From: a virus
Lineage: Duplodnaviria > Caudoviricetes
Length of the DNA: 64,000 nucleotides
IMG/VR virus record: IMGVR_UViG_3300027754_000035
Direction: 5' to 3' (one strand)
Shown here: positions 12,941 through 53,324 of the stretch, in pieces
How positions within the stretch are numbered: the first letter of the stretch is position 1
Layout of the letters: each line of letters begins with the position of its first letter
Translations under genes and position numbers: made by a program
The notes under the pieces: generated by a model
Seen by the model: the letters and a program-made list of their open reading frames with translations, nothing else
Told to the model about the DNA's origin: nothing
Databases searched by the model: none

Positions 12941-13588
12941 TTATGATTTGATTAAAAAGTGATTCCAGTCAAAGTGACGAGCCTCACGAATGGTAGCATA
13001 TAGAGGAATTGGTGATGGAGCAACTGGATTACGTAGCAGCTTCAAACCAACTTCACTGTTGAGTTTATTACCCTTTTTGCTGTTGACATCCTTGCTACAC
13101 AGCACAAGATTTTCCCAACTGTCGTGGCCACCCTTGCTGCTAGGTATGATGTGGTCAATTGTGGCACTCTGTCGCTCAATCTTACGACCTGTGTATTGAC
13201 ACGTACCATTGTCACGGCGATAGATTGCATCCTTGCTAGGCTTGCCATTAAAACGCTTAACAGGCATCTTATTGAAGTTTGTAGCAATGATCACAGTTGG
13301 AGCACGCATCGTGAATCGAGCACTGTGAACCACAGGATCCCAACTACGAATCGGCAACGTCAACCACTCACTCCACGTCACAGGATTCATGCTCTTTGCT
13401 TCGGACGTAATTGGATCACCGTTATCATCGACTTCGTAATCAATGTCCAAGACCAAGCTGGTAGGCTTATCGTGGGAATCACCACTACAAAGATCAACGA
13501 TGGCGTCTTTCACAGTCTTGAAACCCACAGGCTGCCAATTGGCATTGAGGTTCAAGCAAATAGTCTTGTTGATGATACTGTTTTCCAT
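12941..13588 (-). CDS. HNH endonuclease
   Basis: CQYTG...TIDHIIPSSKGG..SWENLVLC...NSKKGN. Confidence 0.88.
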   Translation of the reverse strand: MENSIINKTICLNLNANWQPVGFKTVKDAIVDLCSGDSHDKPTSLVLDIDYEVDDNGDPITSEAKSMNPVTWSEWLTLPIRSWDPVVHSARFTMRAPTVIIATNFNKMPVKRFNGKPSKDAIYRRDNGTCQYTGRKIERQSATIDHIIPSSKGGHDSWENLVLCSKDVNSKKGNKLNSEVGLKLLRNPVAPSPIPLYATIREARHFDWNHFLIKS

Positions 13589-27817: not shown

Positions 27818-30265
27818 ATGGCCGACGTAGATTATAACGATTTACTAATTAAAGACAACTTTGTTGATTGGATGGATATCATTTCTAAAAATGATCCAGA
27901 TCCTATTATTAGACAATCAGCAAAAGAGGTGGGATGGGCAGTAAATGGTAATTCACAAGTTAGTCCAAAACCATCATACAAATCGTTGTATGCGAAATAT
28001 TCGTTTATAGTAGTTCCCATTAAAACAGAAAATGGCCTAAAATCACAACTTTATTCTTATAACGGCCCGACCCGACAAAAATTCATTGGCATAATTTATG
28101 CCCCCGGCGTAGTATATGATTCCAATTGCTGTGGACCATTACCAACACCCAGTGTAACCCCAACACCCAGTGTCACACCCACACCAAGTGTAACTCTGAC
28201 CCCAACATCCAGTGTTACTCCTACTGTTACACCAAGTTTGACACCAACAGCCAGTGTTACACCAAGCTCGACAGCCACACCAAGCTTGACACCAACGGCC
28301 AGTGTTACACCCACAGTAACCAGAACCGTAACACCCAGCGTAACAGCTACTCCAAGTGTGACGGCAACACCCAGCGTAACAAAAACACCAAGTGTAACGC
28401 CAACAGTCACAAATACCGCAACACCAACTGGAACAGCAACGCCCAGTGTAACTAAAACTCCAAGTGTGACGGCAACTCCTAGTCATACTGTGACGCCAAC
28501 ACATACCGCTACAGCAACTCAAACTCCTAGTGTAACTCCAACCAAAACAATTACACCTAGTACCACAACAACTCCAAGCGTCACGCCTAGTCGCACAACT
28601 ACACCAAGTTTAACACCAACACCATCAATTACAAGATCGACTAGTGTAACACCAACTAAAACAGTAACACCAACCAGAACAACAACAGCTACTCCAAGCA
28701 TCACAGCTACTCCAAGCATCACAGCTACACCAAGCGCAACTGGTAGTGGTACTCCAGGTTCCAGTGTGACACCAACACCAAGCATCACAGCTACTCCAAG
28801 CATCACAGCTACACCAAGCGCAACTGGTAGTGGTACTCCAGGTTCCAGTGTGACACCAACACCAAGCATCACAGCTACACCTAGTGAAACACCAACACCA
28901 AGCATCACAGCTACTCCAAGCATCACAGCTACACCAAGCGCAACTGGTAGTGGTACTCCAGGTTCCAGTGTGACACCAACACCAAGCATCACAGCTACAC
29001 CTAGTGAAACACCAACACCAAGCATCACAGCTACTCCAAGCATCACAGCTACACCAAGCGCAACTGGTAGTGGTACTCCAGGTTCCAGTGTGACACCAAC
29101 ACCAAGCATCACAGCTACACCTAGTGAAACACCAACACCAAGCATCACAGCTACTCCAAGCATCACAGCTACGCCAAGCGCAACTGGTAGTGGTACTCCA
29201 GGTTCCAGTGTGACACCAACACCAAGCATCACAGCTACACCTAGTGAAACACCAACACCAAGCATCACAGCTACTCCAAGCATCACAGCTACACCTAGTG
29301 AAACACCAACACCAAGCATCACAGCTACTCCTAGTGAAACACCAACACCAAGCATCACAGCTACACCTAGTGTGACAGCAACTAGAACAGCTACACCTAG
29401 TGAAACACCAACACCAAGCATCACAGCTACTCCAAGCATCACAGCTACTCCAAGCATCACAGCTACACCAAGCATCACAGCTACTCCAAGCATCACAGCT
29501 ACTCCAAGCATCACAGCTACACCAAGCATCACAGCTACACCAAGCATCACAGCTACACCTAGTGTGACAGCTACACCTAGTGTGACAGCAACTAGAACAG
29601 CGACGCCAAGCGCAACTGGTAGTGGTACTCCGGGTTCCAGTGTGACACCAACTAGAACAGCGACGCCAAGCGCAACTGGTAGTGGTACTCCGGGTTCCAG
29701 TGTGACACCAACTAGAACAACAACACCTAGCTTGACAGCTACACCCAGTGTAACTGCAACTCCAAGCTTGACACCGAGCAGTTCGGATACAACAACCGGA
29801 TTATTTTATGTTGTTATTGCTGATTTGCCTAGCACACAGAGTTTTTGTGTGACTCAACCTTCATGTGTAGACTTCCCAGACTGCACACCATGCTCCGATG
29901 CTGACCCTGTGCCTTATTGCCCAGGTAACATAACATACGCTTCGACTGTCAATGTTTATGGATCGTTGCCGGGGGCATATATGAATCTTGATCATGTTAT
30001 TGATACATCAGCATCTTGTGGTAGTACAGCTACCAACACAGTAATGATTAAATTCAACAATAATTTCTTAACGGCGGCATCTGGTGACACTAACATAGCT
30101 TATCAATGCCATCGTACATTCCCAACTTACAATATAAACGGTTGTTGTGATATTGGGGCGGACGATGTATACAAGACTTACGATGGTTTAAGTAGTCAAA
30201 TCCAAAATGCTCAGACCTTTGGGCCTGGAACTGGAACGGTGGGCGACCCATATATCATCAATTAA
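27818..30265 (+). CDS. Mucin-like protein A: shared N-terminal domain, about 545-aa Thr/Pro/Ser stalk, Cys-rich C-terminal domain
   Basis: 815-aa ORF; TATTTATA 3 nt before the ATG; 9 Cys in the last ~165 aa. Confidence 0.8.
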   Translation: MADVDYNDLLIKDNFVDWMDIISKNDPDPIIRQSAKEVGWAVNGNSQVSPKPSYKSLYAKYSFIVVPIKTENGLKSQLYSYNGPTRQKFIGIIYAPGVVYDSNCCGPLPTPSVTPTPSVTPTPSVTLTPTSSVTPTVTPSLTPTASVTPSSTATPSLTPTASVTPTVTRTVTPSVTATPSVTATPSVTKTPSVTPTVTNTATPTGTATPSVTKTPSVTATPSHTVTPTHTATATQTPSVTPTKTITPSTTTTPSVTPSRTTTPSLTPTPSITRSTSVTPTKTVTPTRTTTATPSITATPSITATPSATGSGTPGSSVTPTPSITATPSITATPSATGSGTPGSSVTPTPSITATPSETPTPSITATPSITATPSATGSGTPGSSVTPTPSITATPSETPTPSITATPSITATPSATGSGTPGSSVTPTPSITATPSETPTPSITATPSITATPSATGSGTPGSSVTPTPSITATPSETPTPSITATPSITATPSETPTPSITATPSETPTPSITATPSVTATRTATPSETPTPSITATPSITATPSITATPSITATPSITATPSITATPSITATPSITATPSVTATPSVTATRTATPSATGSGTPGSSVTPTRTATPSATGSGTPGSSVTPTRTTTPSLTATPSVTATPSLTPSSSDTTTGLFYVVIADLPSTQSFCVTQPSCVDFPDCTPCSDADPVPYCPGNITYASTVNVYGSLPGAYMNLDHVIDTSASCGSTATNTVMIKFNNNFLTAASGDTNIAYQCHRTFPTYNINGCCDIGADDVYKTYDGLSSQIQNAQTFGPGTGTVGDPYIIN
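28144..29780 (+). repeat. Nested tandem repeats: 18-nt TATPSI units and a 120-nt unit repeated about 4 times (28801-29280)
   Basis: Identical 60-nt lines at 28861, 28981, 29101, 29221. Confidence 0.95.
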
Positions 30266-43535: not shown

Positions 43536-44645
43536 TTAAACAGCTACATCAAACTTAATTGTCGGGTGAAACTCGTAATCAAGTAGTTTGATATCATCAT
43601 ATTTGAAATCAAACAATGATTTGACTTCTGGATTCAACCACAACTTCGGCAATTTTTTAGGTTCTCTCGTAAGTTGTAGTTTCAATCCATCAAGATGATT
43701 CACATAAATGTGCGTATCTCCGGTTGAATGTGTGAATGTACCTGTAGTCATATTGACCGTCTGTGCAATCATGGCAGTTAATAGTGAATAACTAGCTACG
43801 TTAAATGGATTTCCGAGTGCCGTGTCTTGCGATCTTTGGTACAACAAACAATTCAAACGACGGCTTGGAATATTTTCCTCGGCTAATTTTTGAATAACCC
43901 ACATTTCCGATTTAGGAAGATTTACAGGACCAACTTGTTTTTGTAAAATTTCAATTCTCTCTTCCAATGTCAATTCTTCTGTATGGAACTGGAATAAGCA
44001 ATGACAGGGCGGCAAAGCACAATGATCTACCCAATATGGATGCCATGCACTTACGATCATACGTCTGTCGTCTGGATAGAACTTGAGTTTCTCAATGACT
44101 TTCCTCAGCTGATCTACAGTGTCTAGGGTTTCTTTGCCCTCTGAGGGTGCCACTGTATCATAGTCATTGTAAAATGGAAATGCTCGCCACATTCCACCAT
44201 AAGTTCCTTCACCAAGTTCACCCCATCTATTTGCAAACGATTCGTCAAATTTAATTTTTTCAACAAATTCTTCTTGTGTCAATTTGTTCTCTTGCACCGC
44301 TGGAATTTCTTTCTCCAGATTTTCTGGAGAAGTATAGAATTTTGCTCTATTTTCCCACCAATCAGAATATTTCTTGTATGCCCATTCGTTCCAAATACGA
44401 ACATTGTTATCAACCAGATATTTGATATTGGTGTCGCCACTGATGAACCACAATAGTTCATGAACAATAGCTGGCCAATGAACTTTCTTGGTTGTTAGAA
44501 TTGGAAATGCGTTGAGGTCAACGTCGTATTTGGCTTGAGCACCAAAAATACCGATTGTATCAATGCCGGTACGATTTTTCTTAACTTTTCCGTTTGTCAA
44601 AATATCATTGACAATTCTGAAATATTCTGTGTCTACTTTGTTCAT
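43536..44645 (-). CDS. thyA: Thymidylate synthase
   Basis: NRTGIDT, FPILTTKK, HELLWF, ALPPCH, YQRSQD, PFNVASY, GDTHIY. Confidence 0.95.
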   Translation of the reverse strand: MNKVDTEYFRIVNDILTNGKVKKNRTGIDTIGIFGAQAKYDVDLNAFPILTTKKVHWPAIVHELLWFISGDTNIKYLVDNNVRIWNEWAYKKYSDWWENRAKFYTSPENLEKEIPAVQENKLTQEEFVEKIKFDESFANRWGELGEGTYGGMWRAFPFYNDYDTVAPSEGKETLDTVDQLRKVIEKLKFYPDDRRMIVSAWHPYWVDHCALPPCHCLFQFHTEELTLEERIEILQKQVGPVNLPKSEMWVIQKLAEENIPSRRLNCLLYQRSQDTALGNPFNVASYSLLTAMIAQTVNMTTGTFTHSTGDTHIYVNHLDGLKLQLTREPKKLPKLWLNPEVKSLFDFKYDDIKLLDYEFHPTIKFDVAV

Positions 44646-44652
44646 AATTTAC
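44625..44652. repeat. 28-bp direct repeat, copy 1 (thyA start region)
   Basis: ttctgtgtctactttgttcataatttac, identical to 45415-45442. Confidence 0.95.
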
Positions 44653-45060: not shown

Positions 45061-45435
45061 TTATTTGATAGCTTTTAGTCGTGTAACTACATCATCCACA
45101 TAATACGCAGTAAATTCTGCTTCTGCGTCTATTTTATTGATTGCAGTTTCATGCCATTCTTCTCGCACTTGTTTTTTGTCGGTGTAGAATTGTTTGAAGT
45201 CATTGTGCAACCACTCGGTTGGTAAAGTCGGATGGATATTGTCATACAATCTACGAACAATTGGCAGAATCATGCCAGCGAATCTTTCGGAGTCGGGTGT
45301 ATATGGAGGAACATCTTTTAGTAGACGGTGTGCCATATTGTCCAATGCAAGTGCTAGTTCATCACAACTAGTTTCGTTTTCAATACCTTCTAACAATCCA
45401 GTTTTTCTCCACTTTTCTGTGTCTACTTTGTTCAT
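45061..45435 (-). CDS. Protein resembling the N-terminal segment of gp23-type major capsid proteins (gene 1 of inserted cassette)
   Basis: KWRKTGLLEG...LDN.A..LL...FAGMILPIVRRLY; starts with the same 7 codons as thyA. Confidence 0.5.
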   Translation of the reverse strand: MNKVDTEKWRKTGLLEGIENETSCDELALALDNMAHRLLKDVPPYTPDSERFAGMILPIVRRLYDNIHPTLPTEWLHNDFKQFYTDKKQVREEWHETAINKIDAEAEFTAYYVDDVVTRLKAIK

Positions 45436-45442
45436 AATTTAC
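45415..45442. repeat. 28-bp direct repeat, copy 2 (folA stop plus start)
   Basis: Identical to 44625-44652. Confidence 0.95.
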
Positions 45443-45912: not shown

Positions 45913-46083
45913 TTTTTTATAAATCAAAACTTCTGGAATAACCATCCAATGCTTCATTATATCCACTAAGCCAATAATTATGTTGATCCGAATCTTCTGG
46001 GTATGGACATTGTGTTCCGTCATCATTATATCCAGCTTTGTATCCCACATCAAATGCTTGTTGTTGTTCTGGTGACGGTTTAC

Positions 46084-46512
46084 TCATATTACATTTGCTA
46101 TCGGAGATTCTAGTATTCGTTCATAACGCAACTCAGTTGGTTTAACTTCGACGAATAGAAATATGCCAGTATATATATTTTCTTTGATTTCTGCTTCTTT
46201 GATTTCTGCTTCTGTTATTCCATTCGGATACCGTTGCGCGAATTGTGTAGGAGTATATATTTTCAGGCTGTCTACAAATGAATTCACGTTGTCAAGTGAC
46301 TTAATTGCTACACATTTTCCGTCCGGCAATTTTTTATACCAACTAAAAGCAAAAATTTTATCATTATATTTCAATATACTACTTTCATTATTTGAAGCTC
46401 GAAAATTTTCAATCTGAACTAACTTCTGTTTAATAATGGGAGCATTGATAGTGATGTGCGGAGTATTGTCCGCATATGGTTGACAATAACTTAATAATGC
46501 TTGAATTATCAT
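46084..46512 (-). CDS. Hypothetical protein
   Basis: ORF track. Confidence 0.5.
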   Translation of the reverse strand: MIIQALLSYCQPYADNTPHITINAPIIKQKLVQIENFRASNNESSILKYNDKIFAFSWYKKLPDGKCVAIKSLDNVNSFVDSLKIYTPTQFAQRYPNGITEAEIKEAEIKENIYTGIFLFVEVKPTELRYERILESPIANVI

Positions 46513-47484: not shown

Positions 47485-47700
47485 TTAATATCCTAATGTT
47501 TTGAGTGATGCCAATAACATTGCAGCGGCTTTCTTCATCTTTTTTCGTTTAACCTTTATTACAGACAGTTGTTTTTCTGTATAACAACTATCTCCCCTCC
47601 AAACAAGATCTTGTGATGCAAGATCTTTAGATGTTCGCTTCAAATCAGAAACAACAAGTTTAACAATTTCAACGTAATTACTATTTTGATCAGTATTCAT
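47485..47700 (-). CDS. Hypothetical protein (cassette array)
   Basis: Start lies in the 23-bp junction repeat. Confidence 0.55.
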   Translation of the reverse strand: MNTDQNSNYVEIVKLVVSDLKRTSKDLASQDLVWRGDSCYTEKQLSVIKVKRKKMKKAAAMLLASLKTLGY

Positions 47701-47724
47701 ATCAACTCTTTTTCTTTATATTGT

Positions 47725-48186
47725 TCATACGAATGGAATCAAATTCTCTTGGTTTCTTACATATCTATGGATATTAGAAACATCATCTGGCATTTTAATG
47801 CGATCAAAAAGATGGCTCAACCAATTTCTCATTTGGATGTGGGTATAAAAATGAGCATAATTTTCTTCGTCCCACCAAATATCATAACTCATCAAATTCT
47901 TTTCTTTTGCATCTTTATCAAACTGATCGTAACCTACTTGACCGCCGACGGAAACTGTGCGGTCAGATTTCTCTATTGTTGTAGAAAAAGTTACACTGGA
48001 TGTTTCTTTCGTAACGGGATCACAACATTCATCAATTGTAAACTCTTTGGTCAATTTTCGTAGATGGTCCATGATAGGAACGAAATTGTTTCGTATCTTG
48101 TTTTCGTTGATGAATGCGTTGTATTCATCCAATGTGATTTCATCCTTTGCAGCCAATATTGTTGCCAAATCATTTGTAGTGTTCAT
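47725..48186 (-). CDS. Hypothetical protein (cassette array)
   Basis: Start lies in the junction repeat. Confidence 0.6.
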   Translation of the reverse strand: MNTTNDLATILAAKDEITLDEYNAFINENKIRNNFVPIMDHLRKLTKEFTIDECCDPVTKETSSVTFSTTIEKSDRTVSVGGQVGYDQFDKDAKEKNLMSYDIWWDEENYAHFYTHIQMRNWLSHLFDRIKMPDDVSNIHRYVRNQENLIPFV

Positions 48187-48425
48187 ATCAATCCTTTTTC
48201 TTTATATTGTTTATTTTCTTGTTCTCTGATGTATAGGTAAGTTTCCCACCAAGCATCTTTTGCTGCTTGAATTCCCTCAAGATCTTTAATATCTTCAATT
48301 GTATCAAAAGATAAATTACCATCTATATTGGCAACAACATTGCATTGACAATCATAGATTTTAACATTGAATTTGGGTCGGGTCAACAAATGATAATCAT
48401 TTGGATGTTTAGCTGTACAAATCAT
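48183..48425 (-). CDS. Hypothetical protein (cassette array)
   Basis: Both ends lie in junction repeats. Confidence 0.55.
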   Translation of the reverse strand: MICTAKHPNDYHLLTRPKFNVKIYDCQCNVVANIDGNLSFDTIEDIKDLEGIQAAKDAWWETYLYIREQENKQYKEKGLI

Positions 48426-48461
48426 ATCAACTCTTTTTCTTTATAATCGCCGTTCAATTCA

Positions 48462-48926
48462 TTATAGTTTCCATCCTGATTCAATTGCTTTTTGTTTAAT
48501 ACGATAGTCAAAATCTTTTACGGCATAGTTACGATCAATCCTAGATTTTCGTACATACAATTCGTCTTCCGAAAAAGGAGTGTGCCCACTTATCATAACC
48601 CATTGATCCAAATGTGCGGATTTCAGTGACATATACCACTCCAACAAAGATGCATCCGATTTCAAATCAAAAAAGAAAATATTGTTGACATACTTGTATC
48701 TAACCTCCAACGCAATGTCATTCTTTATTTGTTCCTCGGTATAATCATGCGTATATTGTTTATAGTAAGCCTTGGCATCACCATCATGAATATCCATGCT
48801 TCCCCAATGATAATGCATTGTGCTCAATTTGCAACTTTTTTCGTCTGGCTCGTATTCAAAGCCATACAATTTACCATAGTGTTCAATATCCTCAAGGGAA
48901 AATATAGAGATTTTAGTTTGGGCCAT
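48462..48926 (-). CDS. Hypothetical protein (cassette array)
   Basis: Start lies in the junction repeat. Confidence 0.6.
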   Translation of the reverse strand: MAQTKISIFSLEDIEHYGKLYGFEYEPDEKSCKLSTMHYHWGSMDIHDGDAKAYYKQYTHDYTEEQIKNDIALEVRYKYVNNIFFFDLKSDASLLEWYMSLKSAHLDQWVMISGHTPFSEDELYVRKSRIDRNYAVKDFDYRIKQKAIESGWKL

Positions 48927-48927
48927 A

Positions 48928-49167
48928 TCAACTCTTTTTCTTTATAATTGGATCAAAGAATATATCTTCGTATCCTTTGTTCCAACATTCTTCAATGTCC
49001 TCATCAAAGTGAATCATACGTAATTTGCAACTATAATGCAAACTGAACCATTGATGTATATCTTCATTTTTGTTACCCAAATAGTGTGCGGTGGTCAGTG
49101 GATTGTTGCAAAAACAATCAATCATTGATTTGTGTTCGTCACAAACTGCTCTATACCATGTTTTCAT
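48928..49167 (-). CDS. Hypothetical protein
   Basis: C-terminus is encoded by the junction repeat. Confidence 0.55.
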   Translation of the reverse strand: MKTWYRAVCDEHKSMIDCFCNNPLTTAHYLGNKNEDIHQWFSLHYSCKLRMIHFDEDIEECWNKGYEDIFFDPIIKKKS

Positions 49168-49448
49168 TGAAATATAATTTTTTCATATTCATTATTCTGA
49201 TTAGTTTTTATGGACACGTTTATTTTGCTGCCACATTTGAAACAACCAGAGTTTGGTCTATATCTAAGCGAACAAATTGCCAAAGAGAAGTGCGATGAAT
49301 AATTACACACATCACATTGATCGTTGCTACATTTGAACTCCAAATACTGTTTTGATTCATCAAATTGTTTCAACTCATTGTTCAATAAAGAATGATATGT
49401 TTCAATCATCCGACGATTATTTTCGTCATCTATATGTTCGGTTGTCAT
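49164..49448 (-). CDS. Cys-rich (Zn-ribbon-like) hypothetical protein
   Basis: Start MTTEH within a 17-bp repeat shared with 49828-49844; C..C pairs. Confidence 0.55.
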   Translation of the reverse strand: MTTEHIDDENNRRMIETYHSLLNNELKQFDESKQYLEFKCSNDQCDVCNYSSHFSLAICSLRYRPNSGCFKCGSKINVSIKTNQNNEYEKIIFQ

Positions 49449-49476
49449 ATCAATCTTTTTAATTTCCGTTAACCAA

Positions 49477-49632
49477 TTATCGCCGTTGAGATTGCTTGTG
49501 GAAGAATTCCCAACCCTTCCAGCACCAGCGAGTTCCAAATCCTCCGAAGCCTCCGAATTTCAAGCGGCAGTACCGGCGAGTCAATGATTGGCGTTGGATG
49601 CCGTAGGTCTTTCCGTAGATTGTGATGGTCAT
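49477..49632 (-). CDS. 51-aa Arg/Gly/Trp-rich ORF absent from the track
   Basis: MTITIYGKTYGIQRQSLTRRYCRLKFGGFGGFGTRWCWKGWEFFHKQSQRR; ATGA overlap with the upstream stop. Confidence 0.5.
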   Translation of the reverse strand: MTITIYGKTYGIQRQSLTRRYCRLKFGGFGGFGTRWCWKGWEFFHKQSQRR

Positions 49633-49838
49633 ATTCTGCTATTTTCCAATCCAGATGTTAATGTTGACACTGTTTCTTTGTCACCACACGATTCGTTAAC
49701 AATACTTACGGCAGTGTCCAAACCATTATTGTATATGCCCTTCAACTTTTTAGCAAGACATAATTTGTCCTTGTCACTTGTTTTATCATAGTGATTGAGT
49801 ATATAGTCTGCCAGTTGGTAATATCTGTCGGTTGTCAT
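49629..49838 (-). CDS. Hypothetical protein
   Basis: Operon packing. Confidence 0.55.
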   Translation of the reverse strand: MTTDRYYQLADYILNHYDKTSDKDKLCLAKKLKGIYNNGLDTAVSIVNESCGDKETVSTLTSGLENSRI

Positions 49839-49839
49839 A

Positions 49840-50139
49840 TCAATTTTTATTGTCTTTCAATTCAGCAAATACTTTTTTAACTAAATCAAGTGCTACATTT
49901 CCAATTTCTGAGTAATCTGCATCAGGATCAAGTGGTTGTTTGGCAATACTTTCTGGAATCTGTGTCATATGTAATTTCCAATTATACTCTCCAACATAAT
50001 AATTGTCTGTATTATACCCATATTTTTCTCCAGCACTTTGAGCTTCTTCCTTTGTGTTATAACTACCAAGTATTACACCGTTGGGTTTGCTACCATGAGC
50101 AGGCACTTTTTCAAATACTGCATATTGTTTATTATTCAT
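49840..50139 (-). CDS. Hypothetical protein
   Basis: Operon packing. Confidence 0.55.
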   Translation of the reverse strand: MNNKQYAVFEKVPAHGSKPNGVILGSYNTKEEAQSAGEKYGYNTDNYYVGEYNWKLHMTQIPESIAKQPLDPDADYSEIGNVALDLVKKVFAELKDNKN

Positions 50140-50348
50140 TTGACATCAATGTTGTATTTTTCCTTGATTAACTGTCTGAAATCTGCCGGTCTCCACTGAT
50201 CAAAATGTTCCTCACCTGTTTCTTTATCTATTTTTGTGACAAAACTACGTGATGTCTCCTCGTCATATCGAATAACATGGGTACAGTGTTCTTTTTTATT
50301 CCACTCTCGTTCGTGTTCGGATGTGACGAAGATTGGTTTATTATTCAT
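50136..50348 (-). CDS. Hypothetical protein
   Basis: Operon packing; shares a 13-bp start with 49840..50139. Confidence 0.55.
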   Translation of the reverse strand: MNNKPIFVTSEHEREWNKKEHCTHVIRYDEETSRSFVTKIDKETGEEHFDQWRPADFRQLIKEKYNIDVK

Positions 50349-52967: not shown

Positions 52968-52995
52968 AGTATACCACACGATCAAACATTGTCAA
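52968..52995 (-). promoter_or_regulatory. Sigma70-like promoter with extended -10, 16-nt spacer
   Basis: TTGACA-N16(TGTGG)-TATACT. Confidence 0.75.
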
Positions 52996-53031
52996 CAACA
53001 GAGTTAGCTACAAGAGGTTATTAACTGAAAG

Positions 53032-53108
53032 TGGTGGGCCCTGTCGGATTTGAACCGACAACCAGTTTTTTATGAGAAAACCGCTCTAACCAATTGAGCT
53101 AAGGGCCC
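53032..53108 (-). tRNA. tRNA-Ile2 (CAT, lysidine type)
   Basis: Cloverleaf GGGCCCT...GGGCCC-A-CCA; loop CTCATAA; close to E. coli ileX architecture. Confidence 0.85.
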
Positions 53109-53113
53109 TGAAA

Positions 53114-53188
53114 TGGGGAGCGGGTCCGAACTTTGCATTTCGCCTTCTGATCTGGACGACCAGCGTGCTCTCTTTACACTTGACCCGC
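53114..53188 (-). ncRNA. Degenerate tRNA-Gly(TCC)-like RNA
   Basis: Acceptor GCGGGTC/GACCCGC, U73, D and anticodon stems intact; loop CGTCCAG (G33) and no TTC T-loop. Confidence 0.6.
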
Positions 53189-53296
53189 ATTAAAAATTTG
53201 CAAGACTTACGAGTATCTTGCTGCCCTTTGAAAACTGAAGCCTAGTTGATCATTTCCAGACTGGGGTACTATGAGGTAGCTATCCTCAACAACCTC

Positions 53297-53324
53297 ACTA
53301 TATACCACAATTCGGAACTGTCAA
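53297..53324 (-). promoter_or_regulatory. Sigma70-like promoter, 16-nt spacer
   Basis: TTGACA-N16-TATAGT. Confidence 0.7.

Follow-up and report, generated by a model that had tools for sequence, protein, structure and literature searches.

A 23-nucleotide repeat at the starts of small genes and its probable part in gene turnover in an uncultured freshwater phage

We describe here a short repeat, a 23-mer called J, at the starts of consecutive small open reading frames (ORFs) of a large uncultured freshwater (lake) phage with a genome of roughly 200 kb. The sequence analyzed, referred to below as the window, is a stretch of 64,000 nucleotides (nt) of a member of the Caudoviricetes (IMG/VR record IMGVR_UViG_3300027754_000035), in which the array of small ORFs spans positions 47,485 to 50,348. 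An earlier reading of the sequence (the original prediction) had called this array integron-like. The hallmarks of integrons are an IntI integrase adjoining the array, attI, Pc, and attC sites, which are imperfect inverted repeats that fold into hairpins. Other described arrangements come from phages. In T4-type phages, promoter-early stem-loop (PeSL) cassettes of about 100 bp combine a sigma-70 promoter with a terminator stem-loop; ORF192 of RB49 lies between two PeSLs where phi1 has a single element, and PeSL mini-circles have been demonstrated (Arbiol et al. 2010, PMC2839356; Comeau et al. 2014, PMC4122927). Cluster K mycobacteriophages contain start-associated sequences (SAS) of 13 bp, present in about 10-19 copies per genome, which stay with the same gene families across subclusters and have no reported link to recombination (Pope et al. 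2011, PMC3203893). Gene 68 of Island3 is flanked by a duplicated gene end of ~50 bp, and conserved linkers are usually not found at mosaic joints (Pope et al. 2011, PMC3029335). Whether the mosaic joints of phages form via short conserved linkers or through random breaks and selection is an old open question. For the array described here, which belongs to a hyperplastic region of small accessory genes, we consider it probable that J links genes by translational coupling and doubles as a joint for recombination.

J and its gene junctions

J occurs four times on the minus strand of the window, as three exact copies (J1, J3, and J4) and one copy with two mismatches (J2), and the spacing between copies is 486, 239, and 501 nt. 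All copies have the same orientation, and each terminates in the ATG of one of four consecutive minus-strand ORFs, g1 to g4 (Table 1). The recurrence and spacing given in the original prediction were confirmed. No further copy with five or fewer mismatches was found in the window, and the number expected in shuffled sequence was 0. The repeat extends to 37 nt (89% identity) for J1 and J2, which bracket g2, and to 25 nt without mismatch for J3 and J4, which bracket g4.

All four copies are built alike. An A-rich tract with a Shine-Dalgarno-like core (AAGGA in J2, AAGAG in the other three) is followed by TTGAT, which contains a TGA stop codon, and then by ATG. J is asymmetric, and its coding read-outs differ, J2 forming the end of g3 and J4 that of g5; two of the four copies contain the upstream stop. 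These two readings, in different frames, agreed with the original prediction, while the copies it had taken to be non-coding turned out to lie in short remnant ORFs rather than in plain spacers. The junctions are either of the TGA-one base-ATG type (J4, and the remnant ORF at J1) or of the ATGA type (J2). The stop is found within a few bases of the start and the putative ribosome-binding tract in the end of the upstream gene, as in a stop-restart junction. No inverted repeat was found at or around J, and no RNA fold was shared by the four 80-nt contexts of J, one of which was essentially unstructured.

The 17-mer that the original prediction had called related was confirmed, one copy lying where g6 begins (49448) and the other where g8 begins (49838). 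This repeat can be lengthened to 21 nt with 95% identity and is significant, only 0.25 repeated 17-mers being expected in shuffled sequence. A 13-mer thought to continue the pattern was indeed present where g9 and g10 begin, yet it consists only of four shared first codons (MNNK) and is not above chance, since ~65 repeated 13-mers are expected in shuffled sequence.

The array belongs to a minus-strand operon that runs from ~52.9 kb down to thyA at 43.5 kb. Its genes overlap by 4 nt or lie 1-8 nt apart (gaps of -4 to +8 nt), apart from three larger gaps of 24, 28, and 36 nt, located at J1, upstream of g6, and at J3, respectively; the gaps at J1 and J3 are occupied by the remnant ORFs. As judged by consensus scans only, the array genes, all on the minus strand, are promoterless, with strong promoter matches lying upstream at ~53 kb. 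In these scans, none of 51 promoter-like sites involved J, and no terminator-like site was found on the minus strand between 47.4 and 50.0 kb. A TATAAA at the 5' end of J was considered as a -10 element and rejected, as no -35 partner was found for it and relatives do not conserve it at their J-like junctions.

Joints and gene order in relatives

The variants described below are all short-read metagenome contigs, labeled L0xx to L2xx; L086, L088, L123, L136, and L142 come from lakes. Scanning the metagenomes with a 19-nt pattern gave at least 120 matches, mostly chance single matches in unrelated DNA. Among the matches listed, nine were checked further and seven were informative and belonged to the phage group; the match in L079/L167, a contig of large genes, was judged to be due to chance.

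In L086 and L123, a match covering g6 and g5 (99.2%) and a match covering J3 and g3 (100%) overlap by exactly the 25-nt J. The arrangement in these contigs is g5-single J-g3, and both g4 and the accompanying remnant ORF are absent; g4 is an ORFan flanked by two elements in the window where these close relatives have one. The g3 gene itself is cut after 18 codons in L086 and L123 and followed by 1.8 kb of other genes. In L136, the matches covering g5 and J1-g1 overlap by the 23-nt J, 1204 bp with g4, g3, and g2 are absent, and an in-frame fusion joins the first five g1 codons to a gene for a protein of 201 amino acids (aa). One genotype recovered in three assemblies (L088, L157, and L160) has g5-J joined, with a 7-nt microhomology, to the last ~160 nt of the DHFR gene. 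In L142, the left flank of J1 (the end of g2 plus 8 nt of the remnant ORF) is followed by J in its GGAT allele and by a different downstream ORF, while g1 lies upstream with a non-J leader. Among the matches listed, J with the tail of g5 on its left has four different right flanks, J has four different left flanks, and one left flank occurs with both J alleles. Deletion-type junctions, which had been predicted, therefore exist (g5-J-g3 and g5-J-start of g1), and variants with a single J where the window has two or more bear out the core proposal, namely that recombination at these junctions adds, removes, and reshuffles genes in translation-ready form. The idea that recombination is confined to the repeat was not supported, since other gene boundaries, and sites a few codons into genes, harbor many joints, with microhomologies of 5-12 nt. 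We also observed that the genotype of L088 (13019-13200), L157, and L160 has lost the first two thirds of DHFR and eight other genes.

Comparison of gene order led to a similar picture. Nine contigs from several lake samples were collinear with the window at 99.7-100% identity, i.e. they represent the same genotype, while contigs with 85-99% identity carried the same genes in other orders and contexts. With nt identities of 80-99%, g2, g3, g4, g5, and g6 were found again in differing orders and neighborhoods. The g2 gene (97% nt) is found in L198-L203 in the order DUF5662, 60-aa gene, g2, 60-aa gene, 80-aa gene, DHFR. In L206, g4 (97% nt) precedes g6, the reverse of the window order, and in L208 it belongs to another row of small genes, ending at thyA. 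The g12 and DUF5662 genes are swapped in L198, and g3 precedes a phosphatase gene in L211. The ends of the homology blocks (contig ends excluded; not all independent, since some contigs are related) lay within 15 nt of a gene boundary in 59 of 84 cases, whereas 9.2 were expected and none of 10,000 simulations gave more than 22. Gene order is therefore not fixed in relatives; a fixed order was one of the two findings that would have contradicted the original prediction. The other, that the ORFs are diverged tandem paralogs, was ruled out, the best pairwise E value among the array ORFs being 0.11.

A blastn search of the region against 50,697 phage records gave no match, and a search of IMG/VR with the flanking 201-aa protein gave a match at the level of the signal peptide only. 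Of 65 DUF5662 loci in IMG/VR, even the closest (82-84% aa identity) had no array ORF within 10 kb and no J with four or fewer mismatches. The single match to the 23-mer in IMG/VR lies within a coding region of an unrelated contig and was treated as chance.

Traces of lost genes were found at the junctions (Table 1). Over its first 8 nt, the remnant ORF at J1 agrees with the beginning of a 60-aa gene located after g2 in L198. The one at J3 retains the first 13 nt and the final bases of a 66-aa gene located after g4 in L206 and L208. For these two genes, the bodies are lost from the window, while first codons and, for the 66-aa gene, last bases are kept. Similar scars affect g8 in L206 (17 codons), g5 in L202 and L206, g3 in L123, g1 in L136 (the in-frame fusion), and g2 in L142 (a chimera). 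This pattern is expected if only those rearrangements survive that keep the putative stop-restart chain. Short remnant ORFs and repeated start regions in arrays of phage ORFans would accordingly deserve to be annotated as footprints of gene turnover and not as noise.

The original prediction had also drawn a parallel with an insertion at thyA, which proved to be apt: in L142, DHFR and ThyA are immediate neighbors, and the site is empty. In the window, two genes lie as a unit between DHFR and thyA, with copies of a 38-nt repeat (89%) on either side, at 44615-44652 and 45405-45442. At the empty site in L142 (reverse strand, ~1380-2280), the DHFR and ThyA matches overlap by the 28-nt repeat. In other variants, a 69-aa gene replaces the 124-aa gene of this unit.

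Origin of J and possible explanations

Several observations bear on where J came from. In L211, whose g3 homolog is 85% identical (nt), the gene ends in the very 31 nt that make up J2 and its left flank in the window, and the tail is kept in the g3 family, as ...YKEKGL(I/M) at 84% identity and as ...EKGxL at 55%. Because of this, J2 is the native, long-conserved 3' coding end of g3. The tails of g5 are variable and Lys-rich, and one family member with 76% identity has nearly the tail of the window, encoded by similar DNA, which suggests that the g5 tail is partly native. The earlier claim that J is conserved at the level of DNA or RNA only is not supported by these findings. At least 11 further gene junctions in contigs of the clade are J-like, with an A-rich tract, GAGGA, AAGGA, or AAGAA, and the TTGAT-ATG core, the upstream gene stopping at the TGA of this core; essentially no such core was found in five large distant relatives (123-212 kb). 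J therefore appears to be a recently multiplied member of a clade-specific family of coupling linkers. It is not intrinsic to g1, g2, and g4, because their orthologs in L123, L142, L198, L204, L206, and L208 have other leaders; only g3 keeps J across relatives, as its own coding end.

Gene order is not fixed, the ORFs are not tandem paralogs, and deletion-type junctions exist. We favor the explanation that J is a duplicated translational linker serving as short homology. A ribosome finishing the upstream gene could restart on the next one with the help of the Shine-Dalgarno-like tract of J, its TGA, one base, and ATG. J arose as ordinary coding DNA, the 3' end of g3, the tail of g5 being similar. 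General recombination dependent on homology or microhomology between co-infecting genomes may then have joined other genes to J, and staggered crossovers may have duplicated it, leading to the four copies of the window genotype. From then on, the direct repeats of 23-25 nt could serve unequal or intramolecular recombination by which whole genes are removed, added, or re-ordered, and every product would keep a working stop-restart signal. We infer that the joints were formed by recombination within J rather than beside it, and the direction of the events (deletion or insertion) and the recombination enzymes that acted are inferred likewise. The stop-restart linker suggests a reason why exchanges are tolerated within the operon, namely that downstream genes remain translated.

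Several points weigh against this explanation. An assembler might join co-occurring genotypes at a repeat of 23-25 nt, in which case the two flanks of a joint may belong to different molecules; even if the contigs are chimeric, there must be some genome in which a given flank adjoins J. By the standards of classical homologous recombination, 23-25 nt of homology is short. Three of the four copies have a weak Shine-Dalgarno match, and the putative role of J in translation is deduced from sequence only. DUF5662, g6, and DHFR also have variable neighbors without J. Finally, the J-bearing variants were found by searching for J, and so do not show J to be used more often than other junctions, and the window covers 64 kb of a genome of roughly 200 kb.

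It is conceivable, though we consider it doubtful, that the near-identical linkers are kept as a universal adaptor. A gene lying between two linkers would loop out, possibly as a circle, and re-insert at any linker of a co-infecting genome, already coupled for translation. If this were true, the array would be a recombinase-free cassette system operating at the level of translation, not transcription, and the remnant ORFs would be its footprints. Another explanation is illegitimate recombination followed by selection, in which breaks occur anywhere, the survivors keep genes and coupling, and the copies of J are passive by-products of staggered or unequal crossovers. The many joints that lack J or lie a few codons inside genes, at microhomologies, fit well with this; an enrichment of breakpoints at gene boundaries is equally expected, and the remnant ORFs resemble survivors of selection for intact coupling. 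What makes this explanation rather unlikely is that two different variants have their joints exactly within the repeat (J4/J3 and J4/J1), and that, among the matches listed, one left flank with J is found with four right flanks and one left flank with both alleles. Such joints would be an improbable coincidence unless J was used as homology.

J could also be held identical by selection as a regulatory site, recombination being incidental. T4 RegA, a translational repressor of early mRNAs, acts at start regions, and J might be an operator for a repressor of this kind or a start-associated sequence. That three exact copies are present among four consecutive starts, in differing coding contexts, would agree with this, as would the finding that the purine-rich tract is mostly unpaired in predicted folds and the position of J in the ribosome-binding region, which is the same as for SAS elements (PMC3203893). 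SAS and ESAS elements stay with gene families, however, whereas the orthologs of g1, g2, and g4 (87-97% identity) have no J. Furthermore, J is present in just four copies in 64 kb, J2 is old coding sequence, and no candidate binding protein was identified; we find a regulatory role of this type improbable. Least probable by far is that the array is truly integron-like, or another kind of site-specific cassette system, with J as the site of attachment for a dedicated recombinase whose gene lies outside the window. The array does consist of promoterless single-gene units in the same orientation, with a repeated site between them and presence or absence of units among variants. Yet Pfam and PHROGs scans of ~40 window proteins (all array ORFs and most ORFs of at least 200 aa) revealed no tyrosine or serine recombinase, and J has neither inverted-repeat symmetry nor a shared hairpin, is partly ordinary coding sequence, and coexists with joints at unrelated microhomologies. 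The sole nuclease- or recombinase-type protein found in the window is encoded by a free-standing HNH endonuclease gene (12941-13588, minus strand), 34 kb from the array.

Array genes, surroundings, and described systems

Table 1. Location of the J copies, related junctions, remnant ORFs (scars), array ORFs, and promoter matches in the window
Feature	Position	Strand	Description
J1	47698..47720	-	exact 23-mer, ends in g1 ATG; 5' part inside the 9-codon remnant ORF
J2	48184..48206	-	two mismatches (GGAT allele); 3' coding end of g3 (...YKEKGLI), whose stop overlaps the g2 ATG
J3	48423..48447	-	25-nt exact repeat of J4 (23-mer at 48423-48445); ends in g3 ATG
J4	48924..48948	-	25-nt exact repeat (23-mer at 48924-48946); g5 tail (...IIKKKS, stop), one base, g4 ATG
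J-like junction and first codons of g6 (MTTE)	49438..49458	-	21-nt repeat (95%) with 49828-49848
J-like junction and first codons of g8 (MTTD)	49828..49848	-	partner of 49438-49458; the pair flanks the unit g8+g7
Scar MNNIKKKS, stop (9 codons)	47702..47728	-	ATGA start on g2 stop; ends one base before g1 ATG
Scar METIMN, stop (7 codons)	48454..48474	-	first 13 nt and last bases of the 66-aa gene following g4 in L206 and L208
g1	47485..47700	-	71 aa; no known family; non-J leader in relatives L123 and L142
g2	47725..48186	-	153 aa; bracketed by the 37-nt repeat; no known family
g3	48183..48425	-	80 aa; conserved small protein family
g4	48462..48926	-	154 aa; no known family; between J4 and J3
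g5	48928..49167	-	79 aa; conserved Cys/His-rich small protein; variable Lys-rich tail
g6	49164..49448	-	94 aa; body 97.7% identical to L206; N-terminus variable
g7	49477..49632	-	51 aa; doubtful ORF; overlaps open upstream extension of g6
g8	49629..49838	-	69 aa; only a 17-codon in-frame remnant in L206
g9 (99 aa) and g10 (70 aa)	49840..50348	-	no known family; only first four codons in common
Two sigma-70-like promoter matches (11/12), ~53.0 and 53.3 kb	52968..53324	-	head the minus-strand operon; consensus scan only

Pfam and PHROGs scans of the ten array ORFs gave no significant match. Homologs of g2, g3, g4, and g5 were found in metagenomes, and at least three of the array ORFs (g2, g3, and g4) are under purifying selection, because the ratio of nonsynonymous to synonymous substitution rates (dN/dS) at the larger divergences was 0.25-0.30 for g2, 0.14 for g3 (vs L211), and 0.23 for g4. 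The g5 family comprises proteins of ~80 aa with invariant Cys and His positions; in distant relatives (L209 10001-10252), its gene is located between a primase-like gene and a Mre11/Rad50-like gene. Four alternative N-termini of g6 were found among variants (window 49164-49538; L206 5792-6196; L123; L136). One form of g6 is a 134-aa protein with an additional Cys-rich N-terminal segment, and another begins with the first 11 codons of g5. In L204 (4475-5898), a g2 homolog (69% aa) directly follows the gene for a clamp-loader (AAA) protein near DNA polymerase B and overlaps the clamp-loader stop. The corresponding position in T4 is occupied by gene 62, encoding the clamp-loader small subunit. 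With no family match for g2, the hint is positional only.

The window also encodes NAMPT, PRPP synthase, helicase, ThyA, DHFR, YopX-like, HD, and DUF5662 proteins, as well as sugar-nucleotide enzymes and long repeat-rich proteins. A 56-aa ORF (45917-46087, minus strand) just upstream of DHFR, and overlapping its start, has a precomputed Pfam match to ribosome modulation factor (PF04957); a protein of this type would be unusual in a phage. Exact tandem repeats with a period of 120 nt, present at 28769-29295 and on to ~31300 in G+C-rich genes for proteins of 815 and 1554 aa, are the source of most repeated 23-mers in the window. A TATTTAT-type motif is found 4-17 nt upstream of many starts on both strands (e.g. 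27818, 30298, 984, 15742), and at other starts TTGACA/TATAAT-type promoters end just 7-14 nt before the start codon. These motifs suggest a separate class of late promoters and very short early leaders.

The array resembles an integron in that promoterless single-gene units of one orientation, with a repeated site between them, are gained and lost. Unlike an integron, it has no integrase (among the ~40 window proteins scanned), no attC hairpin, no attI, and no Pc. It is therefore not an integron, and the label given to it in the original prediction has to be dropped. General recombination at short stretches of homology accounts best for the exchange.

With SAS and ESAS, J shares the features of a short asymmetric repeat of a single orientation, located a few bases from the ATG of non-structural genes, overlapping the ribosome-binding site and sometimes the upstream stop. 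It differs from SAS in being longer, in being clustered at four adjacent genes, and in being absent from their orthologs in relatives. The short conserved boundary sequences proposed for lambdoid phages and mycobacteriophages are similar to J in that mosaic joints fall at gene boundaries, and Island3 gene 68 is comparable with g2 and g4, being an inserted gene flanked by the duplicated 3' end of the upstream gene. In contrast to these boundary sequences, J is exact, is present four times, and has several alternative joints in one natural population. With respect to the old question of how mosaic joints form, a wild lake phage population thus offers an exact linker of 23-25 nt found four times (J2 with its two mismatches included), as well as genotypes that co-exist in it and differ over stretches bounded by the linker.

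The closest known process, in our best reading, is the PeSL-mediated modular shuffling of T4-type phages. Both involve a large lytic phage with a hyperplastic region in which ORFan genes are immediately preceded by short, repeated regulatory elements, and recombinants keep, or would keep, their expression signals. The change from two elements to one seen between RB49 and phi1 at ORF192 is paralleled by that of g4 between the window and L086/L123. Unlike a PeSL, J is only 23-25 nt long (four times shorter), with no promoter and no terminator or conserved hairpin; it lies inside a polycistronic operon, overlaps coding sequence, and appears to carry translational signals only. J may thus represent a shorter, purely translational variant of the PeSL.

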